Origin: an uncultured Planctomycetaceae bacterium | Lineage (GTDB): Bacteria > Planctomycetota > Planctomycetia > Isosphaerales > Isosphaeraceae | DNA: 64,000 bases | Assembly (NCBI GenBank): GCA_963833985.1 | Contig: CAWIAD010000002.1 | Span: 5,952,001 to 6,016,000, forward strand | Direction of reading: 5' to 3' | Shown here: in pieces, positions 36,001 to 42,000 of the stretch | Position numbering within the stretch: the stretch's first letter is position 1 | Layout of the letters: the number at the start of each line of letters is the position of its first letter | Position numbers: made by a program

Positions 36001-39000
36001 ACCAGGCATTCCAGGCGCGCCCCGATCTCGTCATGATCACGGGCGACATCGTCTACGACCGGGGCAGGATCTCCGAGTATCGCCCCAACTTCTGGCCGAT
36101 CTACAACGCCGATGACGCGTCGCCCGCGGCCGGTGCGCCGCTCTTGCGATCGACGATCTTCGTGGCCGCGCCGGGAAACCATGACGTCGGCACTCGCGAC
36201 CTGGGCAAGTACCCCGACTCGCTGGCCTATTTCCTCTACTGGTCGCAGCCCCTCAATGGTCCGCCGGGCGTGGAGGGTTCCGCACACGTGCCCGCCCTGA
36301 AGGGGCCGGAGGCCAACCGCCGCGCATTCCTTGACGCCGCCGGGCCGGCGTTTCCCCGCATGGGCAACTTCTCGTTCGACCATGGCAACGCTCACTGGCT
36401 GGTCCTGGACGCCAACCCGTACGTCGACTGGACCGACCCGCAATTGCGAGCCTGGGTGCAGCAGGACCTGGCGGCCGCCCAGCACGCCACCTGGCGGTTC
36501 GTCGCCCTTCATCAGCCGGGCTTCCAGTCGGCCCGAAAGCATTCGGACGAGGAGAATTCGCGCGTCCTCGCCGACCTTTTCGAGGCCGGCAACGTGTCGA
36601 TTGTCTTTTGCGGCCACGTGCACAATTACCAGCGCACCTTCCCACTCCGGTTCGCCGCGGAACCGCGCACCAGCGGCAAGCCCATGCATGACAAGGAACT
36701 CGTGCCGGGCACCTGGACCCTGGACCGCACCTTCGATGGCCGCTTGCATACGCGGCCCTCAGGCGTCATCTACCTGGTCACCGGCGCCGGCGGCGCGAGC
36801 CTGTACAACCCGGAGCAGCAGAACGACCCCGCGTCCTGGAAAAGCTTCACATGCAAGTTCGTTTCGAAGGTCCATTCGCTGACCGTCGCCACGGTGGATG
36901 GGCCGAGCGTGCTGGTCCGCCAGGTCTCGCTCCAGGGCGAGGAGCTGGACCGGTTCGTGATCACCAGGTGACCACAGCGTGATCAAGGAAAGTCTTCCCG
37001 GAGGAGACGGCTGGCGCGCACCAGGTTCGCCAGCTTGGCAGAGGCAGTCTCGAACGCGGTGATGGGGCTGTCGGCGAAGGTGGCGAAGCCGCAGTCGGGA
37101 TTCAGCAGCACTCGGTCGCGGCCGAACAGGGCGATCGCACGCCGGGCGCGGAAGACGATCTCCTCGACCGGTTCCACCCGGCCGGACTTCTGGTCGACCA
37201 CGCCCACGCCGATGCGGACGCTCTCGGGCAAGCCCTTGAGCACATCGATCTCGCCGGCCCTGGAAGTGCACAGCTCGAGGAAAAGCGTCCCCACGGGAAG
37301 CGAACGGAAGAGCGGGACCAGTGGCGCGTAATCGCCGGAAAGCGCGGCGGACACATCGCGCGTCCAGTTGCCGCGGCAAACGTGCATCGCCAGCCTTTCG
37401 ATGGGGAATGGCTCCAGCGTGCTGACCAGGAGCGATCGTGCAAAATCGAGCTCCTCGGCGATGGGCCTTTTCTCCCCGAGGGCGCCGCACATGAACGAGC
37501 GATTGCCGCCCGCAGGGCGTCCGTGGACCACCTCGGTCAAGACTGGCTCGTCAAGCTGTACGAGCGCGGCACCGGCCTCCAGGAGCGCGGCGATCTCCGC
37601 CCGCAACACCTCGACCACGTCGGCGGCAAGTGCCTCGCGGCTGCTATAGGCACGGTCGGCAACGCATTCCAGCCACATGGTCCGGGTCAGCAGGTAAGGG
37701 CCCGGCAGCGCAATCTTGACCGGCCGGTCCGTCAGCTTCCGCACCGCGATCAGCTCATGCACGGCCAGCGGCCGCGCCGGGTTGCGCGCCAGCCTGCCGA
37801 AGACGGCGGGATGGCGTACCGACTGGGCCGGGACGTCGAGCGCCTGGAGCTCGCGGGCGAAAGCCTCCGGATGTTCCACGTAAGGCAGCAGGTCGACGAT
37901 CGGGATGAGCTGGCAGTTCTCCAGGCGGCTGGCCACGAAGCTGGCGTAGCTGTCGCGATGCTGCTCGCCGTCGGTGACGACATCGACGCCCGCCTCGAGC
38001 TGTGCCTGGACGACCTGGGCGACGGCACGGTCGGCGAGCGCGGAGTATTCCGGCTCCGAGACGCGGCCTTCGAGCCTGCCGTGCAGGGCCTCCAGCAGCC
38101 AGGGGGGCCGGGGCCAGCTTCCAAGGCCCATGACAGCAAGGGCGGCGATCGCCGGCTGGCGATCGTCCGGGGACGTCAAGCGGCCCGACGCCGGATCGGC
38201 CGTCGCAAGTGGCCGGGCTGAGGAGGCATGGCTGGAGGCAACCCGCGGCTCCCTGGCGGTGGGTCCGGTTCCTTGCCTGGCGATCAGGAACGTCCATGCG
38301 GCCGCGTCCCGGTCATGCCGCAAGGAGACGAGCACATTGCCGGTGAGCCGGCACCAGGCCGGCAAGTCCTCGCTCACGGAGGGCTCGGTGGAGCGAATTT
38401 CGAGGATCTCTCCCGGTTGCAGCGGGTCGATGTGGCGCCTGATCTGGAGCAAGAGACCGCTGCCACAGTCGAGGTTGCCGCCATCAAACCGCGCCGCGGG
38501 CTCGGGGCCCGGCTGTTCACCTGGTGTGCGTCTCGGATCAATCATGATGGTCGCCATCGCCGCCAGGATCGTGTCAGTAGCTCACGCAGGGCGCCCCTGC
38601 GCCAGGAACTCGACCAGCCGGGCACCACCGACGATCGTCGCGCCGGGGATGAGCGTGCCTGGGTCCAGGCCGCGCTTCTTGAAGCAGGGGGAGCAGACGA
38701 GGATGGTGCCACCGGCCGCGATAAAGCTGGTCATGAGCTCCCTGAGCGGCTGGAAGCCTGGCTCGTGGATGGCATCGGCCGTGCCTTCGACGGCCAGACG
38801 GACGCCCTGGATACTCAGGAAGACCATGGTCTCTTGCCCGGAGGCCACGGCGGCGCCTGCCACCACGAAGGCCACCGTGGCGCGGTCGGGATCGTCCAGC
38901 GAGCGGGTCAGCGAGACGCAAAACGTTCCGGCCATGGCGAGTTCAGTCCTTTCTGCGCTGAAGGTCGTAACGGGGGTGGTCCGAGTGCAGCAAGCGGTGT

Positions 39001-42000
39001 CCGGTAAGCCGGCACCAGGCGGGGACATCGACCGGGGCACCCTCATCGCTTGTGATCAGGCGGAAGACCTGCCCGGAGTTCAGCCGCTCCAGACGGCTCT
39101 TGAGCGCCAGGAGCATCGGCCCGCATGCCAGGTCGCCCGCGTCCCAGGTTTCAGCAGCCTCCGGCATCTCCAAATTCACTCCGCCGCGCCTCTGGTGATC
39201 TTCTTGACTTGCTCTGCACTGGAATAATGAAGCAAATTCCCCGGCAAGTCACGGACTAATTTCTTGCAAGGCGGAGGGTCCGATGGATGGCGAATCGCTG
39301 CGGCGACATCTTCGGGAGCTGCTGGAAGGCGGCAACGCGCACCTGGATTTCGAGGCGGCCATTGCCGATTTGCCGCCCGCACAACGCGGCCTCCGGCCTC
39401 CGGGGCTGTCCCATACAGCCTGGCGGCTGCTCGAGCACATGCGCATTGCCCAGTGGGACATTCTGCGGTTCTCGATCGACCCGAGCCATGAGTCGCCCGA
39501 CTTTCCCCTGGGCTACTGGCCCGACGGTGACGCCCCGCCGGATGACACCGCCTGGGATCGGACGGTGCAAGCATTCCGCGCGGATCTGAAAACCATGGTA
39601 GCACTGGTGGAAGACCCCACGACCGACCTCTTCGCTCCGATTCCCCACGGCCAGGGGCAAACGATCCTCCGTGAGGCGCTCCTGGTGGCGGACCATAATG
39701 CCTATCACCTGGGCCAGCTCGTGACGGTCCGCAAGTTGCTACGCGCCTGGCCACATGACTGAGATCCTTACAAGCCAAGAGTTTGCCCGAGTCTAATCTT
39801 GGCTGCTTGCATTGATTGATCGGTGCCCCCGGTTCCCTGAATGCGCTGGTTCATGCGACTGACGGCTACTTTTCTTTTCGAATGACAGTGTACATTGAAT
39901 GAACAAGATGTCGTGCGATGGCGAAGCAAACGAAGGTGCCGCAACGGGGTGATCCGCGTGTGAAAGCACCCGCGAGCAGAATCATGGCCAGGCTGAGTGG
40001 ACAGGCAGGCACTGCATGGTACGAACGCTCATTTCCTGGAGCTTGCACAACCGGTTCGTTGTCCTGCTGGGGACGATTGCGTTGGTGGCGTTCGGCCTGC
40101 ATGCCGCTTACAACCTGAACATCGAGGCATATCCCGACCCGACGCCGCCCCTGGTAGAGGTGATCACGCAGAACCCTGGCACCAGCCCCGAGGAGATGGA
40201 GCGGCTGATCGGCATCCCGATCGAGACGGCCCTCAACGGGATGCCGGGGCTGAAATACCTACGGAGTATTTCGCTCGCGGGGCTCAACGATGTCAAATGC
40301 ATCTTTGAGTACGGGACGGATTACTGGCAGGCACGGCAGGAGGTGATCAATCGCATCGGCATGGTGAGCACCCTGCCCCAGGGAGTCACGCCGACACTCT
40401 CGCCCTGGAGCCCCACCGGTGAGATCGTGCGTTACGTCCTGGAAGGTGACGGCTACACGCTGAACCAGCTCAAGGCGGTGCAGGACTGGGTGCTGGAGCG
40501 GCAGCTCCGCACCGTACCGGGGGTGATCGACGTCACCGGGTTCGGCGGCACGGTCAAGCAGTACCAGGTGCTGCTGGATACCCAGCTCATGAAGCGGTAC
40601 GACGTGACCTTGCAGATGGTCACCGACGCGATCACGCAATCCAACGCAAACGTGGGCGGCGACGTGCTTCCCCTGGGTGACCAGTCGCACAACGTCCGGG
40701 CGATCGGCTACCTGGGTGAAGGCATCGACTCGCTCGAACCCGGCAATGCCGGACGCGCATATGCGCTGGAGGTGGAGAAGCTCGAGGACATCCAGGACGT
40801 CGTGGTCACCACCTACCGGAACATGCCGGTCTACATCAAGCAAATTGCCCGCGTGGTGATCGGCTACCAGCCCCGGCTGGGCGTCGTGGGGCGCAACGAC
40901 CAGAACGATGTCGTGGAAGGCATCGTGCTGATGCGCAAGTACGAGAAATCGCTCCCCACATCCAACGCTGTCCAGAAGAAGATCGACGAGCTGAATGCCG
41001 GCGGTCTCTTGCCCAAGGGCATGAAGATCGAGCCGTTCAACCGGCGCACCGACCTGGTCTACGTCACCCGGCACAACGTGCTGCACAACATGCTGGTGGG
41101 AATGGGGCTGGTGATCCTCATCCTGTTCATCTTCCTGGGCGATATCACCAGCGCGGGGATCGTGGCGCTGATGATCCCGCTGGCCATCCTGTTCTCGGTC
41201 TCGGTGCTCTACCTCCAGGGGAAGTCCGCCAACCTGCTGTCCATCGGGGCGATCGACTTTGGAATCATCGTGGACAGCTCTGTGATCATCGTCGAGAACA
41301 TCTACCGGCACATCACCGCGCCCGACGCCGACCGCACGCGCCCCCTGGTCGACCGCATCATCGAAGCCTCGTACGAGATCGAGCGGGCCCTCTTCTTCTC
41401 GACGCTGATCATCGTCTGCGCCTTCATTCCGCTCTTCTCCATGACCGGTCCGGAAGGGGCGCTCTTTGGACCGATGGCGAACACTTACGCCTTTGCCATC
41501 TGCGGCGCGCTCATCCTGGCCGTGACGCTCACGCCGGTCCTCTGCTCCTTCCTCTTCGCCAACAAGAGCGAAGAGAAAGAAACGTTCATTGACCGGATCA
41601 TGAAGCTGCGGTACCTCGTGATGCTCGACAAGATCCTCCGGCACCGCTACCTGCTGCTGGCCAGCATGGGGTCGCTGCTGGCGTTCACAATCTGGTTGAT
41701 CCCCGGGCTGGGCGGCGAGTTCATGCCCCCGCTCGAGGAGGGGAACCTGTGGATCCGCGCGCTCCTGCCGCGCACCGTCACGCTTCAGGAGGCCGCGCGG
41801 ATGGCGCCCCGGCTCCGCGCCGTGATCGGCTCGATTCCCGAGATCAGGGCCGTGATGTCGCACGTCGGCCGGCCCGACGACGGCACCGACGTGACCAGTT
41901 ATTACAACCTGGAATTCAACGCCCCGCTCATTCCCATGGAGGAGTGGCGCAGGAAGCCGGTCAAGATCTTCGGCAAGGAGATCTGGCAGCGGACCATCAC

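Follow-up and report, generated by a model that had tools for sequence, protein, structure and literature searches.

Results

Organization of the operon

The 64,000-nucleotide window that we analyzed, taken from an uncultured planctomycete of the Isosphaeraceae (GCA_963833985.1, contig CAWIAD010000002.1), holds on its minus strand an operon of three genes, namely, tusA, dsrE, and a gene in which a second tusA is joined to one MetE-type barrel. The first gene (38943..39167) encodes a TusA-like carrier of 74 amino acids (PF01206, 41.8 bits); the second (38582..38935) encodes a DsrE-like protein of 117 amino acids as assembled (PF02635, 48.2 bits against a cut-off of 22.7); and the third (36983..38557) encodes a protein of 524 amino acids, P0001, that matches PF01206 at residues 36 to 92 and then PF01717. 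These domains and coordinates confirm the survey's finding of a tusA, dsrE, tusA::MetE-core operon at this place. No sigma-70 promoter was found for the operon. The survey had counted the fusion in 60 and all three elements in 50 of 80 GTDB loci; our recount over 80 loci, by a search of the same kind, came close, with 61 loci having the fusion, 63 dsrE, 60 the upstream tusA, and 53 the complete set. The hosts include Planctomycetia, Xanthobacteraceae, and Myxococcia, and the three-gene set is both widespread and uncharacterized.

The cysteines of the carriers are strongly conserved. In the upstream TusA, Cys15 (codon 39123-39125) lies within a DxGxxxCG motif at the position where CPxP, the canonical TusA sulfurtransferase motif (PMC5322559), is expected, and it is present in 61/61 aligned rows, with a second cysteine, Cys52, in 58/61. 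The fused TusA domain (about residues 20 to 94; 38276..38500) has an invariant Cys31 (codon 38465-38467; 71/71 rows). Neither domain is a canonical TusA: the motifs are DCG and ACG rather than CPxP, and the scores of 28.6 bits (upstream TusA) and 24.1 bits stand against an NCBIfam TusA cut-off of 78, only the Pfam fold being matched. The second gene product belongs to the DsrE/DsrF-like family, as judged from its PF02635 score and a conserved CxxC formed by Cys81 and Cys84 (38693-38695 and 38684-38686), both present in 64/64 rows. Its end, a flaw that had escaped the survey, lies seven residues past the last conserved motif, whereas 108 of 109 homologues continue for 10 to 12 residues and end in Tyr or Phe; a G run at 38594..38597 is one base shorter than in homologues and shifts the last few codons, and the short end reflects either an error of assembly or a minor truncation of natural origin. 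No in-frame selenocysteine was found in the TusA and DsrE proteins of loci L006 to L085 or in the profile matches of L086 to L151.

The MetE-type barrel

The barrel (36986..38143) is a catalytic barrel of the MetE superfamily (PF01717, 99.2 bits against a cut-off of 21). The predicted model of P0001 (pLDDT 86, pTM 0.85, with a disordered linker at residues 99 to 126) returned only MetE proteins as its best Foldseek matches, with an E value of 1e-20 to MetE, and MtaA-type folds ranked far lower. The His-x-Cys and Cys zinc ligands reported previously are present as H392, C394, and C489, joined by E428; these four residues and the homocysteine residues S147, E198, and D336, assigned by reference to the account of Thermotoga maritima MetE (PMC539065), are invariant across 67 rows. 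The folate-binding half is another matter: no PF08267 domain was found in P0001, and Arg292 stands where the folate-stacking Trp sits in MetE. A full-length, folate-dependent MetE was therefore ruled out, the N-terminal barrel being absent and Trp539 aligning to Arg292. Nor does the protein belong to the core methionine synthases. It falls below the NF002119 and NF003317 cut-offs for MesA, MesB, and MesC, whose expected hosts are methanogens or anaerobes using the Wood-Ljungdahl pathway and which are expected to have a corrinoid donor, whereas the hosts here include Planctomycetia, Xanthobacteraceae, and Myxococcia, and no corrinoid gene was found among the conserved neighbors of the operon; it scores 81.7 bits against a cut-off of 392 for NF006589 (MesD), and no MesX (DUF1852) gene adjoins it, while a search for PF08908 in 5 genomes, run without a positive control, found none. 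Every NCBIfam methionine synthase cut-off is failed. The genome also encodes a full-length MetH and a separate MetE-like core protein, so that, as the survey had held, the operon does not supply its only methionine synthase. A TGA within a homocysteine methyltransferase match elsewhere in this genome proved to be the normal stop of that gene. Because 44 of 50 carrier genomes have a MetH-type domain, the operon is not the housekeeping methionine synthase of its carriers, and conserved residues support a zinc alkyl-transfer barrel that would work with its own cysteine carriers.

Selenocysteine at position 357 in relatives

The barrel has an additional invariant cysteine, Cys357 (codon TGC, 37487..37489), which is Cys in 79/79 rows of the alignment. 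In 8 of 148 genes examined, this codon is an in-frame TGA. One shared SECIS-like hairpin lies 18 nt 3' of the codon in 8/8 TGA genes but in just 4/140 Cys genes, by a test that was devised after two cases had been seen and that applies a SECIS consensus rule; folding of the whole hairpin stretch was no better than that of shuffles. Both GTDB genomes with TGA genes hold selA (selA was found in G001, G002, and G215), and a tRNA-Sec scored over the cut-off in G001 and was not found in the 1.6-Mb G002. In the protein records of a second subclade, sequences within one cluster end at the Cys357 codon or show Trp there. Residue 357 is thus predicted to be selenocysteine in two subclades of relatives and is cysteine in the copy in the window. 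In a lineage that has lost Cys357, no carrier genes lie within its 15-kb locus. No MetE-like family appears among the 119 prokaryotic selenoprotein families inventoried in 2026; the predicted selenoproteins of the MetE fold would be missing from that inventory, and they are currently annotated as truncated fragments of 220 amino acids or as methionine synthase.

Co-occurrence with selenium genes and genomic neighborhood

Carriers of the operon are almost always selenophosphate-making genomes: selD was present in 45 and selA in 41 of 50. Four carriers without selA have selD and mnmH, and in another four, the assemblies of which are possibly incomplete, neither selA nor selD was seen. Within single groups, selD was found in 17/17 carriers and 106/244 noncarriers (43%) of the family Xanthobacteraceae and in 8/8 carriers and 25/143 other members of the class Melainabacteria, and selA was found in 23/23 carriers and 101/218 other Planctomycetia. 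Kinship confounds three of the four within-group counts: in the main planctomycete family, selA is present in 49/52 genomes regardless of the operon. Two groups were uninformative, the Myxococcia having selD in 135/151 genomes and the Rhodocyclaceae comprising just 2 carriers among 201; one background genome of the myxococcial tally, marked as unpublished, was used in no other count. The melainabacterial carriers are all large genomes.

Direct sel neighbors are rare (among 166 loci, selD in 1, selA in 2, and selB in 18, 16 of these 18 from one syntenic lineage). At locus L172, within an fdh-sel island, the barrel gene lies immediately 5' of selD, and in Paracoccus it precedes selA-trxB, beside a cysteine desulfurase gene and near selB. 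At 3 loci the operon encloses a PhnDEC-type oxyanion importer, and at about 5 it is adjoined by a putative selenate-type binding protein, the one tested scoring over the TIGR04553 cut-off. Sulfur-type neighbors comprise rhodanese (13 loci), EgtB (12 loci), and a sulfonate-type importer; OsmC, a TlpA-like redoxin, and TrxB also occur. SenA was rejected as an identity for the EgtB-like neighbors, which passed the EgtB cut-off and failed that for SenA, and neither the nos genes beside L020 nor an ABC ATPase cluster proved to be a conserved partner. Conserved neighbors of the hdr-like or dsr type were not found. A secreted partner of 526 amino acids matched nothing in Pfam or NCBIfam and gave a weak S-layer lead (0.84). 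A literature search on Rv1680/Rv1681 found nothing.

Distant relatives have a four-gene layout with OsmC, tusA-dsrE-tusA::osmC-barrel, and the TusA of this TusA::OsmC protein in unfused loci belongs to the same subfamily as the fused TusA. Since distant relatives show this arrangement, the tusA::osmC layout is probably the older, the TusA-barrel fusion having arisen by loss of osmC.

Discussion

Because it is nearly confined to selenium-using bacteria and bears a predicted selenocysteine in some relatives, the operon probably serves to salvage or channel selenium and not to produce methionine, and we regard the broad claim that it is a selenium-handling module as likely to be correct. The survey had described it as a sulfur relay, a reading that is supported in part: the zinc alkyl-transfer barrel with its own cysteine carriers is supported, but the sulfur label misses Cys/Sec357, the link to selD, and the OsmC layout. 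Selenocysteine in an enzyme shows that the residue is reactive, not that the substrate contains selenium. More tentatively, and at somewhat less than even likelihood, we propose a B12-free salvage of methylated selenium in which the methyl group would pass to homocysteine and the selenium along the carriers to SelD. A methyl-selenium compound, such as methylseleninate, methylselenol, or dimethyl diselenide, would be caught on a TusA or DsrE cysteine as Cys-S-Se-CH3, OsmC also serving as a catcher in the older layout, and Cys31 of the fused TusA would hand the adduct to Cys357 (Sec in some relatives). Zinc would activate homocysteine in its conserved pocket, and homocysteine would take the methyl group to yield methionine, in this scheme a by-product, and Cys357-S-Se(-). 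The selenium would then return along the carriers and be freed as selenide for SelD and the synthesis of selenocysteine or selenouridine. The retention of the homocysteine and zinc residues while the folate site was remodeled is a point for such salvage, as are the TGA codons with their hairpin, the selD and selA counts, the sel genes next to the barrel gene at L172 and in Paracoccus, the oxyanion importers, and the lack of carrier genes at the locus of the lineage without Cys357. Points against it are the rarity of direct sel neighbors, the confounding by kinship, the four carriers in which neither selA nor selD was seen, the sulfur-type neighbors, and the folding result for the whole hairpin stretch. 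We favor carriers that unload the enzyme toward SelD over carriers that feed it.

Other readings share part of this evidence. If the salvage acted on the amino acid side, selenomethionine or selenohomocysteine would occupy the homocysteine pocket with its selenium on the zinc, Cys/Sec357 would take the selenium or methyl group, and the carriers would again lead to SelD; the TGA codons, hairpin, and selD counts apply equally, S147, E198, and D336 are conserved, and selenomethionine is bound in 3RPD, the structure of the related MesD. Such a route would have to break a C-Se bond or turn over a methylated cysteine, however, reactions for which we know of no precedent in this family, and the importers within the operon are of the oxyanion rather than the amino acid type; we consider it unlikely. 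In a relay running forward, Cys357 would receive a persulfide or perselenide from the carriers, and HS- or HSe- bound to the zinc would be alkylated by a partner such as an O-activated homoserine or a methyl donor, the step serving either to synthesize a thio or seleno compound or to render one harmless. The invariant carrier cysteines, the cysteine desulfurase, rhodanese, and EgtB neighbors, the alkylation of thiolates at MetE-type zinc sites, and the sulfur adducts reported for DsrE/TusA pairs (PMC4175335) are in keeping with it, but a pure sulfur role leaves the confinement to selD genomes unexplained and selenium detoxification would need no SelD; we give it a similarly low likelihood.

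Still less probable is a back-up methionine synthase with another methyl donor, in which Cys/Sec357, TusA, DsrE, and OsmC would maintain the zinc-thiolate site in its reduced state during oxidative stress. All catalytic residues of a methionine synthase are present, and OsmC, the TlpA-like redoxin, and TrxB are neighbors; against this, most carriers have a MetH-type domain (44/50), the loci lack MesX or a corrinoid partner, all NCBIfam methionine synthase cut-offs are failed, and the selD link goes unexplained. We are just as doubtful of an indirect link to selD, in which the module would help to mature a Mo/W-Sec formate dehydrogenase or some other cofactor, or would simply track lineages rich in selenium genes: the position of L172 in an fdh-sel island and the confounding by kinship would suit this, but the four carriers without selA retain selD and mnmH, and the Xanthobacteraceae divide (17/17 versus 43%) within a single family.

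The precedent for selenium salvage is the corrinoid-dependent methyl-selenide clusters (type 1 mlp, or Sdm), which co-occur with sel genes in 87% of cases, and have been proposed to salvage selenium; the demethylation clusters so far described are known from anaerobes only (PMC10418091). Both systems employ a zinc His-Cys-Cys alkyltransferase of the UroD/MetE superfamily; type 1 mlp uses MtaA-like enzymes, a corrinoid protein, and a RACE activase in obligate anaerobes (PMC10418091), whereas the module here combines a MetE barrel with cysteine carriers, has no corrinoid, and occurs in many aerobic hosts. No MtaA-like Mlp2/Mlp3, corrinoid protein, or RACE activase was found among its conserved neighbors. 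The full proposal, a widespread cobalamin-free reclamation in which a MetE-fold selenoprotein family takes CH3-Se onto Cys/Sec357, passes the methyl group to homocysteine, and delivers protein-bound selenium to SelD, is one to which we attach only about one chance in three. If true, it would do for aerobes what the corrinoid systems do for anaerobes and would be a candidate donor of selenium to SelD within the cell; the form in which selenium reaches SelD in the cell, and the donor system, are incompletely understood (PMC13188914). Through this module, named genes become available in Paracoccus, Azorhizobium, and Aquisphaera, all culturable aerobes, for testing SelD supply and demethylation.

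Among other known systems, the core methionine synthases MesA to MesD (Price et al. 2021, PMC7857596; 3RPD) likewise have one MetE barrel and no folate half, a His-Cys-Glu-Cys zinc site, and Ser, Glu, and Asp for homocysteine, but the barrel described here has in addition the Cys/Sec357 loop and fused or adjacent TusA, DsrE, and OsmC, its loci have neither corrinoid protein nor MesX, it scores under every NCBIfam cut-off, and MetH coexists with it. YedF, a SelD-linked SirA/TusA and DsrE protein (Lin et al. 2015, PMC5322559), resembles the module in its TusA/DsrE pairing and near-confinement to selD genomes; it carries both CPxP and CGxC on a single chain, whereas here TusA has DCG/xCG, DsrE has CSPC, and separate genes come with an enzyme attached. 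The DsrE/TusA relays of sulfur oxidizers (PMC4175335) have carrier folds and invariant cysteines in common with the module but differ in that no conserved hdr-like or dsr genes accompany the operon, in which the carriers are paired at the end with a MetE barrel. Full-length MetE provides the best structural matches; relative to the T. maritima enzyme (PMC539065), the N-terminal barrel is absent and Trp539 is replaced by the invariant Arg292, the Met468 position is Ser or Asn, and the equivalent of Glu583 is kept as E342.

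Results

The three-gene operon reported in the survey's finding is present in the window, with all genes on the minus strand: tusA (39167-38943), dsrE (38935-38582), and a fusion gene (38557-36983) whose 524-amino-acid product joins a TusA domain to a single MetE-type barrel through a disordered linker. MetE structures were the first Foldseek matches to a model of the fusion (pLDDT 86). The genome also carries MetH and a second MetE-like core gene, so that, as had been claimed, the fusion would not be its sole methionine synthase; selA, tRNA-Sec, and a selD gene whose reading frame contains a TGA were found as well. 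The dsrE gene of the window is one base short in a G run close to its end, and a longer tail is found in 108 of 109 homologues. Genes apparently split by frameshifts lie at window positions 29268-31455 and 43213-44714 and at G000:C1:3409657-3410839 elsewhere in the same genome (two overlapping ORFs, an RND adaptor, and a third MetE-like gene), and these suggest indel errors in this assembly. A divergent DinB_2/mycothiol-S-transferase-like gene upstream of tusA (39283-39762, plus strand) stays next to the operon only in the close relatives L085 and L153.

The zinc ligands H392, C394, E428, and C489 and the homocysteine residues S147, E198, and D336 of the fusion are invariant in the 67 rows of the alignment and correspond to His618, Cys620, Glu642, Cys704, Ser411, Glu462, and Asp577 of Thermotoga maritima MetE (reference residues from PMC539065). 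In the alignment to that enzyme, the position of the folate-stacking Trp539 is occupied by an invariant Arg292 and Glu583 is retained as E342 (PMC539065), a pattern suggesting that the methyl-donor side has been remodelled. An extra cysteine, Cys357, sits in an insertion after D336 and is conserved in 79/79 rows, a count that leaves out loci L072 and L077, in which the frames split at this very codon. The Cys357 motif is absent from more distant MetE-like cores, and Cys357 itself was lost in one nested lineage, whose 15-kb locus (L138) lacks the carrier genes. The carriers are equally constant in Cys31 of the fused TusA (71/71 rows), Cys15 of the upstream TusA (61/61), and the CxxC of DsrE (64/64).

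Among the best 80 of 133 GTDB loci, 61 have the in-frame fusion, 63 dsrE, 60 the upstream tusA, and 53 all three. At distant loci, many of them from metagenomes, this TusA domain has OsmC as its fusion partner instead, and a gene of its own encodes the barrel (tusA-dsrE-tusA::osmC-barrel); alternatively, barrel and osmC are accompanied by a rhodanese. No OsmC of that family was found in the window's genome. In a quick tree, which leaves the direction of change unfixed, the 23 fused rows form one clade (SH-aLRT 100), with the unfused rows as sister (support 81); judging by gene order and stand-alone outgroups, the simplest explanation would be that osmC was lost.

In-frame TGA occupies the Cys357 codon in L072 and L077, and the window's own copy encodes Cys. 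Adding one Planctomycete genome and the results of a metagenome scan that started from L077 brought the TGA genes to 8 of 148 examined, L087 and L089 probably representing the same organism. A hairpin with a 6-nt loop that begins 18 nt past the UGA and has G second was found in 8/8 TGA genes versus 4/140 Cys genes, in a test that follows the SECIS rule and was designed once two TGA cases had been seen. The codons of the stem are fixed at synonymous positions, and the whole stretch around the hairpin folds no better than shuffles. The relatives' genomes G001, G002, and G215 contain selA. In a second subclade, represented by proteins only, with one member named Tissierellia, the 15 listed sequences of one 90% cluster have a stop (8) or Trp (7) at this position. 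The module's barrels are core MetE barrels of a new subfamily, with predicted selenoproteins among its members; no PF01717 family appears in Table 1 of a 2026 review of 119 selenoprotein families (PMC13188914) or in the list passage of a 2020 compilation (PMC7435645), and the main text of BSepDB, to which that check was confined, mentions neither methionine nor MetE. In the OsmC domains of L072 (711-1898) and L077 (7971-8717), Ser replaces the conserved Cys.

Fifty carrier genomes, many incomplete, were picked from the 80 for spread of lineages: 45 have selD, 41 selA, 46 one or the other, and 44 a MetH-type domain. Among the betaproteobacterial carriers, four that lack selA possess both selD and mnmH, which ties the module to selenophosphate and not to Sec decoding. 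In the Xanthobacteraceae, selD is present in 17/17 carriers versus 106/244 non-carriers (Fisher 1.5e-6, overstated by kinship); the corresponding figures are 8/8 versus 25/143 in the Melainabacteria class and 11/11 versus 124/140 in Myxococcia, and those for selA in Planctomycetia are 23/23 versus 101/218 (18/18 versus 31/34 within the main family).

Physical linkage to sel genes is rare, yet direct where present. In L172 the barrel is followed by selD inside an fdh-selAB island, and in Paracoccus by selA-trxB, with a divergent cysteine desulfurase. Neighbours across 166 loci include selD (1), selA (2), selB (18, 16 of one lineage), rhodanese (13), EgtB (12), binding proteins similar to the putative selenate-binding one (5), and a PhnE-type permease (3). 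The commonest extra partner is a secreted transglutaminase-like gene (26 of 166 loci, e.g., L139 4384-5514), which spans Planctomycetes, Myxococcota, and metagenome loci. A gene pair encoding a membrane protein of ~180 amino acids and a secreted protein of 526 amino acids with a CPTGH motif, neither with a family match, is inserted in the operon in 18/166 loci (e.g., L041 5762-7957, L073 9982-11929, and L086 12511-14595).

Discussion

The module is real, widespread, and uncharacterised; a literature search with most subscription papers beyond its scope found no description of the operon. The proposal of a sulfur relay is supported in part, as regards a zinc alkyl-transfer barrel that works with its own Cys carriers; the module probably serves selenium rather than sulfur metabolism, and we consider a selenium-handling role for the operon likely.

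For the task itself we tentatively put forward methyl-selenium salvage, a reading that may well be wrong and whose entire chemistry we infer from the observed residues, Cys/Sec pair, gene sets, and co-occurrence. A CH3-Se group, bound as a mixed selenenylsulfide, would pass from the carriers to Cys357, where zinc-activated homocysteine would demethylate it; a protein-S-Se anion is a good leaving group, and the selenium would then be handed to SelD. The same carriers and zinc site could serve salvage that starts from selenomethionine or selenohomocysteine, which we think unlikely, or a forward relay of sulfur or selenium into alkylation, to which we give similarly little credence. Improbable, in our estimation, is a back-up methionine synthase with redox protection, and we would be just as surprised if the link to selenium proved to be indirect.

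The zinc site of the fusion would work like that of the core methionine synthases MesA-D as described in PMC7857596, but the fusion is no member of that group. The pairing of TusA with DsrE is reminiscent of the SelD-linked YedF (PMC5322559), and the operon may do, without a corrinoid, what type 1 mlp clusters have been proposed to do (PMC10418091). A cluster similar to the mlp type lies at G000:C2:1557000-1566000 in the window's genome and encodes a free-standing homocysteine S-methyltransferase domain along with a corrinoid-binding protein. Its flanking ORFs are presumably UroD-family methyltransferases and an activase. The operon may be connected to the Rv1679-1681 cluster of mycobacteria: L075 (6513-10315) and L110 (3291-4082) show a row of osmC, a binding-protein fold like that of Rv1680, the MetE core, and an acyl-CoA dehydrogenase resembling Rv1679, with matches below cut-offs, and a model of the radical SAM protein Rv1681 weakly matches TusA domains.
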